From: Candidatus Omnitrophota bacterium
GTDB taxonomy: Bacteria; Omnitrophota; Gorgyraeia; Duberdicusellales; 4484-171
DNA length: 64,000 nt
Assembly: GCA_021735655.1 (NCBI GenBank)
Contig: JAIPGM010000005.1
Span: 45,461 to 109,460 of the forward strand
Direction of reading: 5' to 3'
Positions within the stretch are counted from its first letter, which is position 1, and each line of letters starts with the position of its first letter. Shown here piece after piece: positions 35,142-60,463 of the stretch. The translations under genes and the position numbers were made by a program. The notes beneath the pieces were generated by a model, which did not search any database, was not told the origin of the DNA, and was given only the letters and a program-made list of their open reading frames with translations.

Positions 35142-35837
35142 TCACCATAATGTATTAACAACAGTATAATTCCAAATAAAATAAATCCCAACAAGTATGA
35201 ATATAATGCCCGTAATCTTCCTCGTGTATAATTCTAGCACCGCTACTTTATGGAACCATTTCGAAAAAGAAGTAACACCCGCAGCAATTCCCAAGGCAAA
35301 TACAACTACAGGAATACCTGTACCTATACCATAGAAAAAAGGTAAAATAATCCCATGAGGACTCTTTAAAGCAAGAGGGATTAAGCTGCCGAAAAATAGG
35401 GCTGCCGCTATTGGACAAAAAGATAAAGCAAACACTGCCCCAAGAACAAAAGCCCCCCTGGCTCCTGATTCTGACAATGCTGTCTGCTTGTCTTTAGAAA
35501 TTGAGAATCTCAAAGCATTTATTTTTAGTATATCTAGCAAAGACAATCCAACCATTAGCAAAATAGGACCCAAAATCTTATTCATGTATTTCTGCAAAAA
35601 ATTAGCTACTATCGGAATACTAACCAAAGAAGTTATGATAATAGATCCTAACACCGCATAGGTAAGCATACGCCCAACAGTATAAGCAAGGCTTGATTGC
35701 AATACTTGTTTTGGATGATTTATTCTTTTTGATAGAAATGATATAGCCGCTATATTTGTAGCAAAAGGACAGGGACTTATTGAGGTGAGAATTCCAAACC
35801 ACAATGCAGAAACCAATGGTAGCACAATTTCAATCAT
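35142..35837 (-). CDS. ccdA: CcdA/DsbD-family transmembrane thiol-disulfide electron transporter
   Basis: Six TMs with membrane-embedded Cys in TM1 (SPCPF) and TM4 (SFCPIAA), typical of DsbD_2/CcdA. Confidence 0.7.
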   Translation of the reverse strand: MIEIVLPLVSALWFGILTSISPCPFATNIAAISFLSKRINHPKQVLQSSLAYTVGRMLTYAVLGSIIITSLVSIPIVANFLQKYMNKILGPILLMVGLSLLDILKINALRFSISKDKQTALSESGARGAFVLGAVFALSFCPIAAALFFGSLIPLALKSPHGIILPFFYGIGTGIPVVVFALGIAAGVTSFSKWFHKVAVLELYTRKITGIIFILVGIYFIWNYTVVNTLW

Positions 35838-35839
35838 CT

Positions 35840-36256
35840 CTAAATATCCTTTAAGTAAGTGCTAATTTCAGTTGTGACATAGTTAAAAAATTTCTTTTTA
35901 TCTCTTACATATTCCCATATTTTGGTAAGTTTCTTATGCTTTATTTCTTTGCCATCTTCAATGTATGAAATTACAAGAGTTTTTGTGTAGAGTTGGTATT
36001 CATCCACGAAATGCTTATTCTCTTTTTCTTCAATATTCACTTCCTTAAAGACCAACAAGCCCTTAACCAGCTCGTCTTTAAAATTTTCTTCAATTGCTTC
36101 CTTTGCATACTGCTCCATCTTATAACAAGTCACGCAACGTGCATTGCCGTGAAAATAATACGCAATTATTTTAGTATCTTCACCAAACGCCATTGTTATA
36201 TTTATTGATAACAATGCCATTAAAATAATTAGTAGAAAAATTTTCTTTATAGCCAT
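35840..36256 (-). CDS. Secreted thioredoxin-fold protein with CxxC (CVTC)
   Basis: Signal peptide. The CVTCYKM redox motif sits at the start of a helix in a Trx-like fold of ~138 aa. Confidence 0.65.
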   Translation of the reverse strand: MAIKKIFLLIILMALLSINITMAFGEDTKIIAYYFHGNARCVTCYKMEQYAKEAIEENFKDELVKGLLVFKEVNIEEKENKHFVDEYQLYTKTLVISYIEDGKEIKHKKLTKIWEYVRDKKKFFNYVTTEISTYLKDI

Positions 36257-36259
36257 GTC

Positions 36260-37216
36260 TTACATTACCAATTGAAGCATATTGAATAAATATCCTGTAA
36301 TAATTATCGCCACCGTTGTTATTCCAAAAAAGATTGTTATTAACTGCAATTTCATTGCTCTCCTTAAGATTATCGCTTCCGGAAAACTCAAGGCAGCTGT
36401 TGCCATCATAAAAGCAAGCGCTGTCCCCAGAGGAACACCTTTTTTAAATAAAACCACCGCTATCGGCACAATTGCCGCACAACTCCCATACATTGGCACA
36501 CCTAAAATAGCTGCGATAGGCACTGAAAATAGGCCTGTTTTACTTATTATTGTATGTATTGTTTCTTGGGGGATATAGTTATGGATAAAAGCACCTATAC
36601 CTACGCCTAATAATACCCACATCCATAATTTTTTTGTAATAGATTTGGCCTCATCTATTCCAAAAGCAAGCCTATCTCTTATCCCTTTGTAATCTACCTC
36701 TTTAATCACTTGTTTATCTTCTGAGACTAAGCCTTTAACAAGATATCTCTCTAAGTTCATCTTCCCCAGAATTACCCCTGAGAAAACACCTATTATAATT
36801 CCGCTTAATACATAAAAAAGAGTAATTTTCCATCCGAAAAAACCAAGCATTACTATTACCAAATACTCATTAATCAAGGGTGAAGTTATCAAAAAAGAAA
36901 ACGTAGCCCCTAAGGGGATACCGGCTTCTAAAAAACTCAAAAAAATAGGTATAGATGAACATGAACAAAATGGAGTTATTGAACCAAAAAGCGAAGCAAA
37001 AAGATTACCGAGAACTTTCTTCTTACCAATCCAATTCTTAATCTTATTCTGAGATATGTAAGTTCTAACAAAACCGATGGCTGCTATCATGAAAAACAAC
37101 AGTAATAGTATTTTAATAGCGTCATACAAAAAGAAATTAGTTACTCCTGCCAATCTTGACTCCGGGGCCAAGCCAAAAACAGAATAAACTAACCAATCTA
37201 TTATCGGCTGCAGCAT
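36260..37216 (-). CDS. Permease of the DUF318/ArsP family (TPFCSCS motif)
   Basis: About 8-10 TMs. The signature [13 protein letters not shown] is diagnostic of the predicted-permease family that includes ArsP. Confidence 0.7.
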
Positions 37217-37337
37217 GATTTGCCCTTATCTTTATCCTTACTCTCACAACAAGATTTTGTTTTTGCCTTTTTTTCCATCTTTTTATCTAACTTTTCCACT
37301 AACTTACAAAAAAAACCTTTCTTCTTTTTTGAATCAC

Positions 37338-37640
37338 TCATTTCTTCCTCCTTGTAATTTTGCAACATCCACCCTCAATCTTTATTGCTTTTATATTTAC
37401 CAATGCATCACCTATTTTACTATAGGCAGAAGCAATTATTCTTGAAAAGGTAGGCCGAGATATTTTTAGTTTCTTTGCTGCTGCTTCTTGCGTCAATCCT
37501 TCATAATCAGCCAATCTTACTGCCTCAAACTCATCTAAAGTCATGTGTACCCCGTCTAATTGATTAGATGACTTACACTGTGGCCTGAAACATCTTTCTC
37601 CTGGCTCACATTTAACCCATCTGGTCTTTTTCGGTCTCAT
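37338..37640 (-). CDS. DUF134/UPF0251-type small DNA-binding protein (sigma-70 region-4-like HTH, C-terminal Cys pair)
   Basis: N-terminal MRPKKTRWVKCEPG..RCFRPQ pattern is typical of the family. HTH (LTQEAAAKKLKISRPTFSRI). C-terminal GGCCK. Confidence 0.6.
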   Translation of the reverse strand: MRPKKTRWVKCEPGERCFRPQCKSSNQLDGVHMTLDEFEAVRLADYEGLTQEAAAKKLKISRPTFSRIIASAYSKIGDALVNIKAIKIEGGCCKITRRKK

Positions 37641-37650
37641 AGCTACCTCT

Positions 37651-37680
37651 TTATGTTATGAACATATGTTCATAACATAA
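37651..37680. promoter_or_regulatory. Perfect 30-bp palindrome TTATGTTATGAACAT|ATGTTCATAACATAA, 11 bp upstream of the DUF134 operon start codon (candidate operator)
   Basis: Exact 15+15 inverted repeat, verified base by base. Position is consistent with a promoter or operator. Confidence 0.6.
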
Positions 37681-37710
37681 TATCAGCCAAAACCGCTCAT
37701 GTCAAAAAAA

Positions 37711-37739
37711 ATATCCCGAAGGAAAAATCTTCGGGATAT
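37711..37739 (-). terminator. Rho-independent terminator of the MBL-rhodanese gene
   Basis: Stem ATATCCCGAAG / CTTCGGGATAT with an 8-nt T-run on the minus strand, ~110 nt after the stop at 37850. Confidence 0.7.
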
Positions 37740-37849
37740 TAAAAAATAAATATAAGCTCTAATCCAAAACTATTAAAATTATTTACCGATTATTACCTCC
37801 CACAACCTGTAACCATGTTAGCTTAATTCTTCTAAATCTTTCACCTGAA

Positions 37850-39091
37850 TCATTGACTGATTGAACAAGTTCCACCGCCGATTTTCGACTTGTATATCTT
37901 TTTGTTATAAGGAAGCTTCATCAGCAACATTCCCATAAGGCAACTATTAGTTACCCCGGCAAAAATTAAAGCACAAGCAACCCATATTGAAATCCAAATA
38001 AAACCACTATGTAAAAAGTAAGCTAAAACTATCCCTAACAACATCAAAATTCCAGCAACAACTCTCACTTGTCGCTCCAAAGACACCGAAGACTCCCCTT
38101 TGAGGACCGGAAATTTCTGCTTTTGCCAGGCAATTAAGCCTCCCTTCATTACTTTAACCGAAACAATGCCAGACTGCAATAACATATCAGCAGCCATCGG
38201 AGAACGGTTTCCGGTACGACAAAACACTATATACGATCGATCAGTCTGACTTAAATCTTTTATTTTAGAATTCAACATATCTATTGGAATATTGATTGAA
38301 TCCTTAATATGGGACTCATTAAACTCTAATGCTGAACGCACATCTAAAAACTTCAAATTAGAGTCTTTAGAAGCATACTCTTTAGCTTCACCAGCTGAAA
38401 CCATCTCTAAGGTCGTAGCTTCCCCTTTCTGATTAACCCTAATGATATTATCAATATTAAATGGTTTAGGAAGCTGCTTTGAACGAGCGTCGCTGACAAA
38501 CTTATCTTTACTGATTTGGCGCATAAAAGGATTATTATTTTTTTCCTTGGCAATAGTAGATGAAACCTTCCCGTTGTAGTCGTGCGAAGGAAAAATAATA
38601 GTGTCTCCCGGAAAATTCTTAAACCTCTGTAAAGTTTCAAACATTGCTTCCGGAGACCCATTTTGAAAATCGGTTCTCCCGACACTTCCGATCAGAAGAA
38701 CGTCACCGGTAAATAATCGACCCTCTCCGTAAATAGCTATGGTATCATCGGTGTGACCAGGAGCATATACAACCTTAAACTGCTTTGTTGCTAAAGCTAT
38801 AGTATCCCCATCTTTAAGCTTTTGATCAACTACTTCGGAAATTACTTTTTCGTGCATCAAAACAGGTACTTTAAGCAATTTCTTCAAATTTGCCGCTAAA
38901 GAAAAATGATCAGCATGAGTATGGGTATCGATTATATACTTTAAGTTTAGTTTCTTTTTTTTAAGATAATTGAGATAGTCTTCCTGAAGGCTTATATGTG
39001 GATCGATAACTAAGGCTTGATTTTGCGAGCCTAAAATATAAGAATAGCAACTTCCAGCAGTAAATTGTTTCATTGAAAAATCTTTATTCAT
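37850..39091 (-). CDS. Fusion protein: MBL-fold (persulfide dioxygenase/glyoxalase II-like) + rhodanese + C-terminal two-TM DUF2892-like domain (CstB-like)
   Basis: HTHADHFS metal motif. Rhodanese active-site loop FCRTGNRS. Hydrophobic C-terminal ~70 aa. Confidence 0.7.
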   Translation of the reverse strand: MNKDFSMKQFTAGSCYSYILGSQNQALVIDPHISLQEDYLNYLKKKKLNLKYIIDTHTHADHFSLAANLKKLLKVPVLMHEKVISEVVDQKLKDGDTIALATKQFKVVYAPGHTDDTIAIYGEGRLFTGDVLLIGSVGRTDFQNGSPEAMFETLQRFKNFPGDTIIFPSHDYNGKVSSTIAKEKNNNPFMRQISKDKFVSDARSKQLPKPFNIDNIIRVNQKGEATTLEMVSAGEAKEYASKDSNLKFLDVRSALEFNESHIKDSINIPIDMLNSKIKDLSQTDRSYIVFCRTGNRSPMAADMLLQSGIVSVKVMKGGLIAWQKQKFPVLKGESSVSLERQVRVVAGILMLLGIVLAYFLHSGFIWISIWVACALIFAGVTNSCLMGMLLMKLPYNKKIYKSKIGGGTCSISQ

Positions 39092-57157: not shown

Positions 57158-57931
57158 TTAGCACTTTAAACATTTTTCTTTTTTAGTCGACTGCTGTTTT
57201 GAATGTATTCGTTCCCGCGCCATCCGACAATACTCTGGAGAAATATCAATGCCGATATAATTTCGTTTAAGGTCCCTTGAAACAACGGCTGTCGTTCCCG
57301 AGCCCATAAAAGGATCAAGTACAATTTTAGCATTGGTTGATGATACAATTCTTTGAATCAAAGATACAGGAAATGGAGCAGGGTGCCCATTTTTCATTTC
57401 CTGCGTAAATTCCCAAACATCACCGTAGGCATTCGCTTTTTTTGCCAATTTGAAATCCGGTTTAGCTATCAAGTATATAACCTCATAAGTAGGCAAGAAA
57501 TACCCTGCGTTAAAATTAATTCCACCTTTTCTTTTCCAAACAATAATCTGGCGCACAGGAAATTTACTGACAATGTCATGCCGGTCTTGAAGCAAGCCAT
57601 TTTGTACCCGCCATTTATGATTATAAAAAATTGCTCCGTCATTTTTTATTAATCTATACATTTCATCGAGACATTTAATTTGCCATGACACATATTCTTC
57701 ATGAGGCATACAGTCATCATGATGACTGTATCCGTTAATCAAAGCGGCTCTCGACCATTTACCACCGCGACCATCTTTCATACCGTTTCCTGTAGAATTC
57801 TTAAGATTGTAAGGCGGAGATGTCACAGCCAAATCAATCGATTCGTCCGGCATTGCTTTCATTACTTCTAAACAATCACCGCAAATGATCTTATTCAGAT
57901 AATCCTTAGGAAATTTTAGTTTAGCACTCAT
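57158..57931 (-). CDS. DNA amino-methyltransferase, beta-class (motif IV SPPY N-terminal, motif I FMGSGTT C-terminal); N4-cytosine or N6-adenine
   Basis: LAVTSPPYNL near the N-terminus. DPFMGSGTTAVVS near the C-terminus. Confidence 0.8.
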   Translation of the reverse strand: MSAKLKFPKDYLNKIICGDCLEVMKAMPDESIDLAVTSPPYNLKNSTGNGMKDGRGGKWSRAALINGYSHHDDCMPHEEYVSWQIKCLDEMYRLIKNDGAIFYNHKWRVQNGLLQDRHDIVSKFPVRQIIVWKRKGGINFNAGYFLPTYEVIYLIAKPDFKLAKKANAYGDVWEFTQEMKNGHPAPFPVSLIQRIVSSTNAKIVLDPFMGSGTTAVVSRDLKRNYIGIDISPEYCRMARERIHSKQQSTKKEKCLKC

Positions 57932-57955
57932 TTCATTCTTTCGATAACAGGTTAA

Positions 57956-58762
57956 TCAAAACACCTCTTTAACATCATCATATAGATCCGACCACACGCC
58001 TTGCTTGAGCCGAAATTTTGTTCCGTGGTTATGTCCCGTTCGGGCGTCAAAATCAATCAACAAACTTCCTGCCTCTACACAGCACAAGAATTTCTCAAAT
58101 GAAAAACCAGATAGAACAGAAAGGTGTTGATAGCAAAAATACTCATGCCCGTCGTCAATTTTGGCCTCAGCGATAACGTAAAAACAATTCTTTATTTTTT
58201 CGCCAATCGCATACTTCAAATCTTCAAAGCCCCAATAAGGCTCCGGTGAAATCGCTCCCAAGCCAGCTCTTTTTTTAACAGAAGATAGCCATGCCTTGAT
58301 CTCAGGGTCTGCCATATCAGCCTTCTTTGAGTCAAATACGAACTTCAACTTTTTAGCAGTACGATCAACGACTACTGTAAATCCGCGATTTGTAAAACTA
58401 CTAGAGCTGGTGGTAGACCGAAAACTCATTTCAGTTTTGGGGTATTTAAACCCAGCCTGTTTATGTGGCCAACCATATTTTGGTAAAAGAATATTGCTTA
58501 CAATCCGAGCCGCTGTTGGCGATGGTTCAATGTGCTTTAATGTTATAAGCGAAGAAGAATGCGCTCGCTGTCCTTTAAGCTCCCATTCTCGAGCATTAGG
58601 AATCGGCAGATTGTTTTCTGTAATGCCAAGAAGAACTTCAAGCGTGTTGCCAACAGCGCCATCATTTCGAGTGTCTCGTGTTTGTTTTACGCTCTTATGC
58701 CACCCTTTCGATGCGATAGCTTTAATTTCCTTGATTAACTCATCCTTTGAAAATAATTTCAT
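57956..58762 (-). CDS. Type II restriction endonuclease, MvaI/BcnI-like
   Basis: Sandwiched between two MTase genes with 24- and 13-nt spacers. N-terminal pattern MKLFSKDEL..DGAVGNTLEVLLGI.ENN..EWELKG matches my recollection of this family. A candidate ExK (VIAEAK) follows acidic residues. Confidence 0.5.
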   Translation of the reverse strand: MKLFSKDELIKEIKAIASKGWHKSVKQTRDTRNDGAVGNTLEVLLGITENNLPIPNAREWELKGQRAHSSSLITLKHIEPSPTAARIVSNILLPKYGWPHKQAGFKYPKTEMSFRSTTSSSSFTNRGFTVVVDRTAKKLKFVFDSKKADMADPEIKAWLSSVKKRAGLGAISPEPYWGFEDLKYAIGEKIKNCFYVIAEAKIDDGHEYFCYQHLSVLSGFSFEKFLCCVEAGSLLIDFDARTGHNHGTKFRLKQGVWSDLYDDVKEVF

Positions 58763-58775
58763 AATCTCCCTTTCA

Positions 58776-59768
58776 CTAATACCTTTTTTGGGGCGGCTTC
58801 CAGAAATCTAAAAGATATTCAAAAGTTACACCCATTGTTATATAATTGCTTGGCCAGCCAAAAATACCAATGCCATTGACCACATTGGTACGATCCCATA
58901 TTATGACATTTCGTAATTCATAGCCTCTCTTACGGAGTTCCTCAATCAACGAAACGTGAATTGTAATGCGCCGGTTTTCCCACCACATATCCGGAACATT
59001 AATAACGCAATGTGCTTTCTCTCTAAGCAGAGGAAGTAACCCTTCAAAAATATCTCCCATTGCCGTCGTATAGGAATCAATAGCCATTGTGCCTAGATCA
59101 CGCACATCTTGAGAATATTGCTCAACTTTACCCAATTGCTTGTTGTTCCTGTCGCGTCGAGATTTGTTTTGACGGGATCTATTTAAAAGATTTGCGTAGG
59201 GCGGAGATGTCCAGATCAAACTTACAGTATTGGGGGAGAGATATTCTGAAATATTTCTGGCGTCATCCTGAATGGCCATCTGAGCACATGCATTAAACAG
59301 GTTAGGATTCTTTTGGAGCCGCTTAACACATAACTCAATGTATTTTTTTTGGAGATCGAACCCAACGGCATTTCGGTTCAAATCAGTTGCGGCAATAAGT
59401 GATGTTCCACTTCCAACAAACGGGTCAATAACCAATTGTCCCTGATGTGTGAATAATTCGATGACTTTTTTTGCGAGGGATATTGGAAAAGTTGCAGGAT
59501 GAACAGATTTATCTCTTATATCGCGAGTTTCATAAAAAAACTGCCAAACTCCTATTTGGGATTTAAGCCAGTCCTTGGGGCCCATGCAATTAATATGTGT
59601 ATGGCCACAATTACATAAACGCTCGTGCGCCATACCTAGCTTTGTGCCATATAAAGAATCGCCTTCAAAAACGGCCAAGGCTTTTTGCTCTGTTTTACTC
59701 TTATCATTGTGACCCTGATCAATAGATCTTTTGTCAACCGCGCTATGACCAAAACTTTGATTTCCCAT
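58776..59768 (-). CDS. Second DNA amino-methyltransferase (motif I DPFVGSGTS precedes motif IV SPPY)
   Basis: DPFVGSGTSLIAATDL at ~aa 113. IWTSPPYANL at ~aa 187. 330 aa. Confidence 0.8.
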   Translation of the reverse strand: MGNQSFGHSAVDKRSIDQGHNDKSKTEQKALAVFEGDSLYGTKLGMAHERLCNCGHTHINCMGPKDWLKSQIGVWQFFYETRDIRDKSVHPATFPISLAKKVIELFTHQGQLVIDPFVGSGTSLIAATDLNRNAVGFDLQKKYIELCVKRLQKNPNLFNACAQMAIQDDARNISEYLSPNTVSLIWTSPPYANLLNRSRQNKSRRDRNNKQLGKVEQYSQDVRDLGTMAIDSYTTAMGDIFEGLLPLLREKAHCVINVPDMWWENRRITIHVSLIEELRKRGYELRNVIIWDRTNVVNGIGIFGWPSNYITMGVTFEYLLDFWKPPQKRY

Positions 59769-59825
59769 TTCTATCTCTTTTCCCCTTCCCTCAATCGATT
59801 ACTTCGTTTAGGTAAAATAAAAAAA

Positions 59826-60446
59826 TTAGATATTTCGAATCGTAGTAACTACAATACCCTGCACCTGAAAATCTCTAGTAACCACTATTGGCTTATGTTG
59901 TTTATTGCTCGAACACGGTTTCAAAACGACCGTATCTCCTGATGAATTATATTGTTTAACTGTAACCTCGTTGTCAACTAAAGCAATGATGACATCTCCT
60001 GTGTTTGCGGTTTCCTGTTTGCGCACGAGTAGGAAGTCACCATCTTCAATACCTTTCTGATTCATTGAGTCGCCTTTGGCTCTGACAAGAAAATATTTAT
60101 GCGGAAGTTGGGCTAATTTTGTTGAAACCGGAAACCACGATTCGATATTTTCTTCAGCTAAAATAGGAATACCACAGGCAACAGTACCGACAAGAGGCAC
60201 GCTGATTGTCTGAACATTATCACTGTTATTAATATCCATAACCAATCGCAAGGCCCCTGAAGGATTTCTACGCAACACTCCTTTAGAAATTAATTTGTTA
60301 ATCAATAGGGCAACAGAGCGAGGTGAACGATATCCTAAAGTCCCCATTAAGTCTCTTAATGAAGGGCATTTGCCAAAATTGACAAGAGCATTTCGGATGG
60401 CTTTAATGACAATCGCTTCTTTATCGGAAATCATTATATTGCTCAT
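59826..60446 (-). CDS. LexA/CI-like repressor with S24 peptidase domain (ORF-track extent 59826..60527; start more likely at 60446 or 60434)
   Basis: N-terminal HTH (LVNFGKCPSLRDLMGTLGYRSPRSVALLINKLISKG). VACG cleavage-site analogue. S24 Ser/Lys region (AKGDSMNQ..). A perfect palindrome lies at the start. Confidence 0.7.
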   Translation of the reverse strand: MSNIMISDKEAIVIKAIRNALVNFGKCPSLRDLMGTLGYRSPRSVALLINKLISKGVLRRNPSGALRLVMDINNSDNVQTISVPLVGTVACGIPILAEENIESWFPVSTKLAQLPHKYFLVRAKGDSMNQKGIEDGDFLLVRKQETANTGDVIIALVDNEVTVKQYNSSGDTVVLKPCSSNKQHKPIVVTRDFQVQGIVVTTIRNI

Positions 60447-60463
60447 GTATACAATTGTATACA
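60446..60463. promoter_or_regulatory. Perfect 18-bp palindrome TGTATACAATTGTATACA at the repressor start (SOS-box-like operator candidate)
   Basis: Exact palindrome with the half-site pattern TGTATAC..GTATACA, reminiscent of CTGT-N8-ACAG LexA boxes. It overlaps or abuts the repressor start codon. Confidence 0.5.

Follow-up and report, generated by a model that had tools for sequence, protein, structure and literature searches.

A conserved palindrome ahead of a DUF134 gene in Omnitrophota is the probable operator of the DUF134 protein

What does a perfect 30-bp palindrome do directly ahead of a gene of the DUF134 family? The question arises in a 64,000-nucleotide (nt) stretch of contig JAIPGM010000005.1 (assembly GCA_021735655.1, Candidatus Omnitrophota bacterium), here called the window. 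Coordinates are positions in this 64-kb window, and the genes of the DUF134 region all lie on the minus strand. The original prediction, made from the sequence of the window, held the palindrome to be the operator of a dimeric regulator rather than a terminator, and named the DUF134 protein itself as the likely binder. Comparison of orthologous loci points the same way: the palindrome is probably the operator of the adjacent DUF134 (UPF0251/COG1342) protein, which would repress its own operon. The elements on which the argument turns are as follows.

37651-37665 and 37666-37680, no strand, the two arms of the palindrome, with the dyad between 37665 and 37666
37656-37675, no strand, the conserved core or 'DUF134 box', TTATGAACAT followed by ATGTTCATAA, putative operator
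37645-37650, minus strand, Shine-Dalgarno sequence AGAGGT between the palindrome and the DUF134 ATG, read from the sequence
37338-37640, minus strand, DUF134/UPF0251 protein of 100 amino acids (aa), PF02001, putative repressor

A repeat search and direct reading agreed on an exact 15+15 inverted repeat at 37651-37680, as had been claimed, with TTATGTTATGAACAT followed by ATGTTCATAACATAA, a spacer of 0 and arms that were 100% complementary. Read on the minus strand, the palindrome is followed by AGAGGTAGCT (37650-37641, with the Shine-Dalgarno motif GAGG) and the DUF134 ATG (37640-37638). The distance from palindrome to start codon was counted as 10 nt, so that the earlier figure of 11 bp was right to within one base. 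Among the perfect zero-spacer palindromes of the window this was the longest, and the arms of the runner-up measured 12 nt. Dinucleotide-preserving shuffles (n = 60) gave a longest arm of 7-13 nt, and by analytic calculation ~1e-4 palindromes with arms of 15 nt or more are expected in 64 kb, which places the dyad symmetry beyond chance. The second-longest perfect palindrome (12+12, ATACAGTCATCATGATGACTGTAT, 57708-57731) lies within the second DNA methyltransferase open reading frame (ORF), 57158-57931. The search for further half-sites that had been proposed with the original prediction was run in the window and gave no recurrence (6 matches at up to 3 mismatches vs 3.9 expected); the four further matches were three-mismatch noise, none of them beyond chance. 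No second DUF134-type site was found within the 64-kb window.

To place the palindrome in a comparative setting, 160 loci were fetched whose DUF134 proteins were 61-91% identical, 80 of them from genome contigs and 80 from metagenome contigs, mostly of Omnitrophota; with the window, the sequence scanned amounted to 947 kb. The 20-bp core TTATGNACATATGTNCATAA was present with at most 4 mismatches in 153 of the 160 loci and was exact in 67, with the consensus TTATG[A/C]ACAT·ATGT[T/G]CATAA. Information content was high only up to 10 bp either side of the dyad, and within that span 9 of the 10 positions of each arm were nearly invariant. The sole variable position, 5 bp either side of the dyad, varied symmetrically (97% complementary vs 51% expected), and two versions of the core resulted, TGAACATATGTTCA (hereafter GAAC) and TGCACATATGTGCA (GCAC). 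Because conservation is confined to 10 bp around the dyad, the functional unit appears to be the 20-bp core. The 30-bp palindrome taken as the unit in the original prediction does exist, and its outer 5+5 bp, which give the 30-bp perfection here and in a few relatives, are on this comparison a lineage-specific extension. Covariation of the outer arms (11-15 bp from the dyad) was considered as a sign of selection for a hairpin and set aside, as complementarity there was marginal over the null (0.50 vs 0.43 and similar values).

The core was found almost nowhere else. Matches to the 16-mer ATGNACATATGTNCAT at up to 2 mismatches numbered 154 in the 947 kb, and 153 of these lay upstream of DUF134, 149 within 60 nt and 4 at 94-192 nt. 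The extra match (L116:1523, 2 mismatches) falls inside a 419-aa ORF and was judged to be chance. In all but two of the core-bearing loci the core stood 11-20 nt from the DUF134 ATG; in four of the remaining loci promoter and box were found 94-192 nt upstream, with a longer leader between. These leaders of 90-190 nt (L075, L132, L151 and L053) hold no ORF and carry internal inverted repeats, GTAACAGGTAACAGGTCAC ... CCTGTTACCTGCGACGTGATAC; they may be insertions or may provide a further control at the level of RNA.

The position of the core relative to the promoter was analyzed next to the boundary of the transcription unit, for which three features are needed.

37700-37705, minus strand, predicted -35 element TTGACA, consensus prediction
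37677-37685, minus strand, predicted extended -10 element TGaTATTAT (hexamer TATTAT at 37682-37677), consensus prediction
37702-37740, minus strand, intrinsic terminator of the upstream gene, a G+C-containing hairpin (stem 37710-37740 plus T-run)

Between terminator and palindrome the window holds a near-consensus sigma-70-type promoter, which agrees with the consensus at 11 of 12 positions and has TG at the end of its 17-nt spacer. The predicted -10 hexamer includes the first 4 nt of the palindrome. From this geometry transcription would start about 7 nt beyond the hexamer, near 37670 and inside the upstream arm. The arrangement recurs: 120 of 135 loci had a promoter that agreed with the consensus at 9 or more of its 12 positions, and in 120 of 135 a -35 element matching TTGACA at 5 or more of 6 positions stood at the equivalent place. 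The conserved TTGACA-17-TAnnnT promoter abuts or overlaps the upstream arm of the core. The distance from the -10 hexamer to the dyad is 11-12 nt in the GAAC class; boxes of the GCAC class include TATAAT themselves, and there the distance is 6 nt. The dyad core in 153 of 160 loci and its fixed spacing to promoter and start codon support the prediction that this is the operator of a dimeric regulator.

A perfect 30-bp palindrome beside a Shine-Dalgarno sequence could form a long hairpin, and perfect palindromes of 28-34 bp with differing outer arms occur in several lineages. The element might on these grounds be a nucleic-acid structure, such as a DNA cruciform, a terminator or attenuator, or a hairpin in the mRNA 5' leader by which the transcript is masked or stabilised. 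With the predicted start inside the palindrome, however, most of one arm would stay untranscribed and the full hairpin could not form in the mRNA, which fits a DNA operator rather than an RNA hairpin; the overlap or abutment of the predicted -10 with the upstream arm in 120 of 135 loci would have the same effect on those transcripts. The predicted 5' untranslated region (UTR) folded weakly (-5.3 kcal/mol, z = -1.4, not significant), and an Rfam scan of 37200-37900 gave no match, only sub-threshold noise over the upstream terminator. What is conserved is the sequence and not pairing alone, with complementarity near the null beyond 10 bp from the dyad. The palindrome has an A+T-rich stem and, as was first noted, is not followed by a T-run, and the true terminator of the upstream gene, said to lie 30 bp further away, was found as a separate hairpin with T-run 29 nt from the palindrome, where it forms the upstream boundary of the DUF134 transcription unit. 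A terminator can be dismissed for the palindrome, which has neither T-run nor G+C-rich stem, and the structural explanations as a whole are very improbable.

The gene upstream of this terminator (37850-39091, minus strand) encodes a fusion of a metallo-beta-lactamase (MBL)-fold domain (persulfide-dioxygenase or glyoxalase-II-like) with rhodanese and YgaP-like transmembrane domains, so that sulfur-transfer chemistry adjoins a thiol-redox operon. It was considered as an operon member and rejected, given the terminator between and its presence next to DUF134 in only 3 of 161 loci.

If the core is an operator, which protein binds it? The DUF134 protein matched PF02001 with 81.4 bits over residues 2-94 (gathering score 27) and, more weakly, HTH_23 and Sigma70_r4; no match to HTH_5 or HTH_20 was found in Pfam, so it is not an ArsR-type winged helix. 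It was 100% identical to a protein from a Candidatus Omnitrophica metagenome-assembled genome, with thousands of further relatives, and a search with the orthologue profile gave 4,365 representatives of 50%-identity clusters at E <= 1e-3; a scan of viral contigs with the DUF134 alignment gave no relatives. In the AlphaFold2 model the block-mean predicted local distance difference test (pLDDT) score was 85-95 for residues 31 to ~85, which would form a helix-turn-helix similar to sigma-70 region 4 or DeoR (AlphaFold2 model and Foldseek). Its predicted recognition helix spans residues 62-82, with residues 61-65 as the N-cap and first turn.

This helix changed together with the box. Covariation was calculated across 130 distinct proteins (79 of the GAAC class and 51 of the GCAC class). 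Proteins of the GAAC class carried S61 and F65 in 79 of 79 cases and P63 in 78 of 79, and those of the GCAC class carried H61, S63 and I/V65 in 51 of 51. Mutual information between residues 61, 63 and 65 and operator class was 0.91-0.97, without exception at 61 and 65 and with one at 63; the other two class-specific columns, 50 and 54, belong to the helix ahead of the recognition helix. Outside residues 47-70 the classes were barely separated (p-distance 0.25 and 0.24 within, 0.27 between), so that the two differ mainly where the protein is expected to touch the bases. On a tree built without the helix-turn-helix residues, from 76 columns only, 11 changes of operator class were needed.

Known folds were compared with this helix. 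The top structural analogues of residues ~35-85 in Foldseek were sigma-70 region 4 domains on the -35 element (PDB 2h27, 3hug, 3vep). DUF134 differs from sigma in having no regions 2 and 3 and a dyad site that implies a dimer, and the window site lies at -10/+1, not at -35. A sequence search of PDB found no solved DUF134 structure and only a weak match to the helix-turn-helix of DeoR; this best sequence-level match was the DNA-binding domain of B. subtilis DeoR (SorC family; PDB 7bhy, 8r7y), with 40% identity over 40 residues. DeoR is an operator-binding repressor and shares ISRPT[FV]SR with DUF134 at the start of the recognition helix. DeoR carries a large effector domain at its C terminus, whereas DUF134 consists of 100 aa with a basic, cysteine-bearing N-terminal arm and a CC tail, and the likeness holds at the level of fold and motif only, as E-values were weak (0.02 or higher).

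The GAAC core also resembles a box with a known owner. The dyad TGAACATATGTTCA contains GAAC-N4-GTTC, and the GCAC variant is similar to the LexA box of Fibrobacter, TGCNCN4GTGCA. The window itself encodes a lexA homologue (59826-60446, minus strand, 157 bits vs TIGR00498). The palindrome could on this basis be a LexA (SOS) box and the DUF134 operon SOS-regulated. The B. subtilis LexA box has the consensus CGAACN4GTTCG (PMC3091678), and the likeness to this Gram-positive (Cheo) box extends to the GAAC-N4-GTTC core with central ATAT; the DUF134 core, however, is flanked by T/A and not C/G, and its context is exclusively DUF134. The lexA gene of the window is preceded by another element (TTGACA...TGTATACAATTGTATACA, 60446-60463). 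Together with six distinct Omnitrophota loci, it shows a conserved lexA box, TGTATACAATTGTATAC, that differs from the DUF134 box. TGTATACAATTGTATACA directly precedes the lexA start codon in six Omnitrophota loci, with the variant CTGTATAATACTGTATAC in the two most distant, and none of the six Omnitrophota lexA loci examined held a DUF134-type box. Enterobacterales DUF134 genes, plasmid-borne ones too, carry related boxes, although LexA there recognises CTG(TA)5CAG (PMC3091678). With a different box at lexA itself, a context confined to DUF134 genes and a box that covaries with the DUF134 recognition helix, LexA as the binder is scarcely credible and was rejected. A recA gene was found neither in the window nor in the fetched loci.

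The LexA homologue appears leaderless, with the conserved TTGACA and TGTATACAATTGTATACA ahead of it. In every Omnitrophota locus examined (window 57158-60463, minus strand; L175-L182) lexA was directly followed by a restriction-modification module of varying type. The module of the window consists of an N6_N4 methyltransferase, an MvaI/BcnI endonuclease and a second N6_N4 methyltransferase; other lexA loci held a D12 methyltransferase with DpnII or DpnI, or an N6_N4/C5 methylase with no endonuclease within the fetched locus. This could be a LexA-controlled or LexA-linked restriction-modification hotspot.

Does the pairing of box and DUF134 extend beyond Omnitrophota? A distant set of 14 loci (35-44% identity, on plasmids and chromids of other phyla) was analyzed. 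Related palindromes centred on CAWWTG were found upstream of DUF134 in Bacteroidota, Bacillota, Spirochaetota and Gammaproteobacteria, as follows.

Phocaeicola, GTTATGAACATTTGTTCATTAT
Parabacteroides, TGAGCATTTGCTCA
Clostridia, TTATTGACATATG[CT]CAATAA
Treponema, TGACAAATGTCAG, two copies
Enterobacterales and Aeromonas, GCATATGC, mostly two copies
Salinivibrio, GCATAAGC, two copies

With the strict pattern a site was present within 150 nt upstream in 9 of the 14 distant loci, against a background of 0.12 sites/kb (P ~3e-13). Half-site and helix motif again moved together: SRPT[FL]SR was paired with GA[AG]C, [SA]R[AT]T.Q with TTGACA, and SRQT.AN with GCAT. In Clostridia (L163, L164, L167, L169 and L173) the box, TTGACATATGTCAA, consists of the -35 consensus TTGACA in inverted repeat, which is of note given the sigma-70-region-4-like helix-turn-helix of DUF134. 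From its sequence the box appears to double as the -35 element for DUF134 transcription; in Roseburia TATAAT follows ~16 nt after the box. The partner genes of distant DUF134 differ from those in Omnitrophota and are mostly NifB/NifX-like. Phocaeicola massiliensis (L165, 1492-2304) encodes DUF134 fused to a NifB/NifX-like C-terminal domain in a protein of 270 aa, and in other distant loci the gene after DUF134 encodes a NifB/NifX-like protein. DUF134 may usually have the NifB/NifX-like domain as its sensor partner, with the cysteine-bearing tails in its place in Omnitrophota.

Binding by DUF134 rests on sequence comparison, and AT-rich dyads with TTAT/ATAA flanks loosely recall Fur/PerR-type boxes, so that a true operator could be bound by an unlinked transcription factor; alternatively, DUF134 could be an activator or dual regulator, as its helix-turn-helix is like sigma-70 region 4, which recruits polymerase within sigma. 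A global regulator would have other sites, yet only 1 of the 154 matches in 947 kb stood away from DUF134, and that one inside an ORF. The covariation of residues 61, 63 and 65 and the presence of the box in five phyla, always beside DUF134, point to DUF134 as the binder. As for activation, a site from -10 to about +15 is classically occupied by repressors that occlude the promoter, and not by activators. We consider these alternatives unlikely, and the naming of the DUF134 protein as binder is supported by the exclusivity of the box, the recognition-helix covariation and the related palindromes in four groups.

In the mechanism that we infer for the DUF134 operator, a DUF134 dimer would bind the 20-bp dyad TTATGAACAT·ATGTTCATAA through its sigma-70-region-4-like helix-turn-helix. 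The site would span about -10 to +15 of a strong TTGACA-17-TGnTATTAT promoter, and the bound protein would block RNA polymerase. Repression would extend to the protein's own operon, that is to DUF134, a cysteine-rich micropeptide, an ArsP permease, an ArsF-like CxxC protein and an ArsG/CcdA-like membrane protein, with release probably via C11, C17, C22, C92 and C93. The genes downstream of DUF134 in the window are given here.

37201-37341, minus strand, lysine-rich micropeptide of 46 aa with a CC...CC end, its ATG overlapping the DUF134 stop codon (ATGA)
36260-37216, minus strand, ArsP_1 permease with the motif PFCSCS (PF03773, 233 bits)
35840-36256, minus strand, ArsF-family CxxC protein of 138 aa with an N-terminal hydrophobic segment (NCBIfam NF040494, 110 bits vs cut-off 60)
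35142-35837, minus strand, DsbD_2/CcdA-like membrane protein of the ArsG family (PF13386; NF040495, 273 bits vs cut-off 200)

The operon had been described as DUF134, permease, thioredoxin and CcdA. Pfam matches bear out DUF134, ArsP_1 and the DsbD_2/CcdA-like protein; the 'thioredoxin' is instead the 138-aa ArsF-family CxxC protein, for which no Pfam match was found. An ArsP homologue lay downstream of DUF134 in 115 of the 116 loci with enough downstream DNA, an ArsF-like gene in 66 loci and an ArsG-like gene in 58. A similar small cysteine-rich ORF, mostly with the same -4 overlap, was present in about half of the 84 loci evaluated. The micropeptide had no match in Pfam or NCBIfam; its relatives share a lysine-rich helix and a C-terminal CC-x(7-10)-CC, and from the ATGA overlap it is predicted to be translationally coupled to DUF134.

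The arrangement is similar to ars operons with an autoregulated repressor of the ArsR/SmtB type: the regulator gene comes first, dyad and core promoter overlap, the structural genes are of ars-type families (ArsP_1, ArsF, ArsG), and conserved cysteines are candidate ligands. It differs in the regulator, which has a sigma-70-region-4-like helix-turn-helix and not the ArsR-type winged helix.

Which signal would release the repressor? C11, C17, C22, C92 and C93 were nearly invariant in 130 orthologues. Across 136 representatives of the wider family, C11 was present in 25, C17 in 9, C22 in 2 and C93 in 8, and at position 92 cysteine was outside the six commonest residues. Bacteroidota DUF134 proteins have a nearly identical box and few or no cysteines there (the DUF134 part of the Phocaeicola protein has none); DNA binding thus probably does not require the cysteines, which are candidate sensor residues. 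A thiophilic signal may bind to them or react with them, and a trivalent (organo)arsenical, a soft metal, a persulfide and an oxidant are examples. One paper (PMC9144182) describes members of the ArsP, ArsF and ArsG families as acting on organoarsenicals; another (PMC6138428) makes no mention of ArsP. From the ars family names of the regulated genes, a thiophilic metalloid is a reasonable guess; soft metals, sulfane sulfur, oxidants or an iron-sulfur (Fe-S) cluster are equally open candidates.

A bolder proposal joins these points. DUF134/UPF0251 may be an autoregulated repressor family that shares a TTAT-NN-ACAT·ATGT-NN-ATAA box, with specificity set by residues 61, 63 and 65-67, and the five-cysteine subfamily of Omnitrophota may be thiol-based sensors of a new kind, for trivalent (organo)arsenicals or toxicants that are similarly thiophilic. 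At arsP-arsF-arsG-type operons this subfamily would stand in for ArsR, possibly together with the co-translated CC...CC micropeptide. Taken as a whole this is tentative, and we consider it rather doubtful.

Several points weigh against the interpretation of the palindrome as a DUF134 operator with a cysteine-based release. The promoter and start site are consensus predictions. Helix and box could covary because of one or a few ancient splits instead of repeated co-evolution. The pattern used across the family, CAWWTG with complementary flanks, was loosened once the distant loci were in view, and the 14 distant loci are not all independent. The locus set includes no archaeal DUF134 loci, and the site scan no complete genome. 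For the operon, ArsP, ArsF and ArsG are family-level annotations that carry no evidence of an arsenical substrate. A sensor role of the five cysteines is speculative, because the N- and C-terminal segments that bear them were modelled with low confidence (pLDDT below 50 in the AlphaFold2 model).

The type of element, an autoregulatory operator that overlaps a promoter, is textbook; what is new is its assignment to DUF134. In a literature search, functional studies of DUF134, UPF0251 or COG1342 were not found, nor was any paper with these box sequences. The finding also means that a LexA-box-like sequence of the Gram-positive type need not be a LexA box. For an uncharacterised and widespread family of predicted DNA-binding proteins, the palindrome would be the first operator proposed, and thereby a testable binding site, with a predicted way of acting (autoregulation through promoter occlusion), candidate specificity residues (61, 63 and 65) and a natural A-to-C operator swap. 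The Omnitrophota are known almost only from uncultured genomes and, to our knowledge, have essentially no experimentally studied regulators; in this phylum the ArsP/ArsF/ArsG-like genes would be the first target operon of a DUF134 protein.

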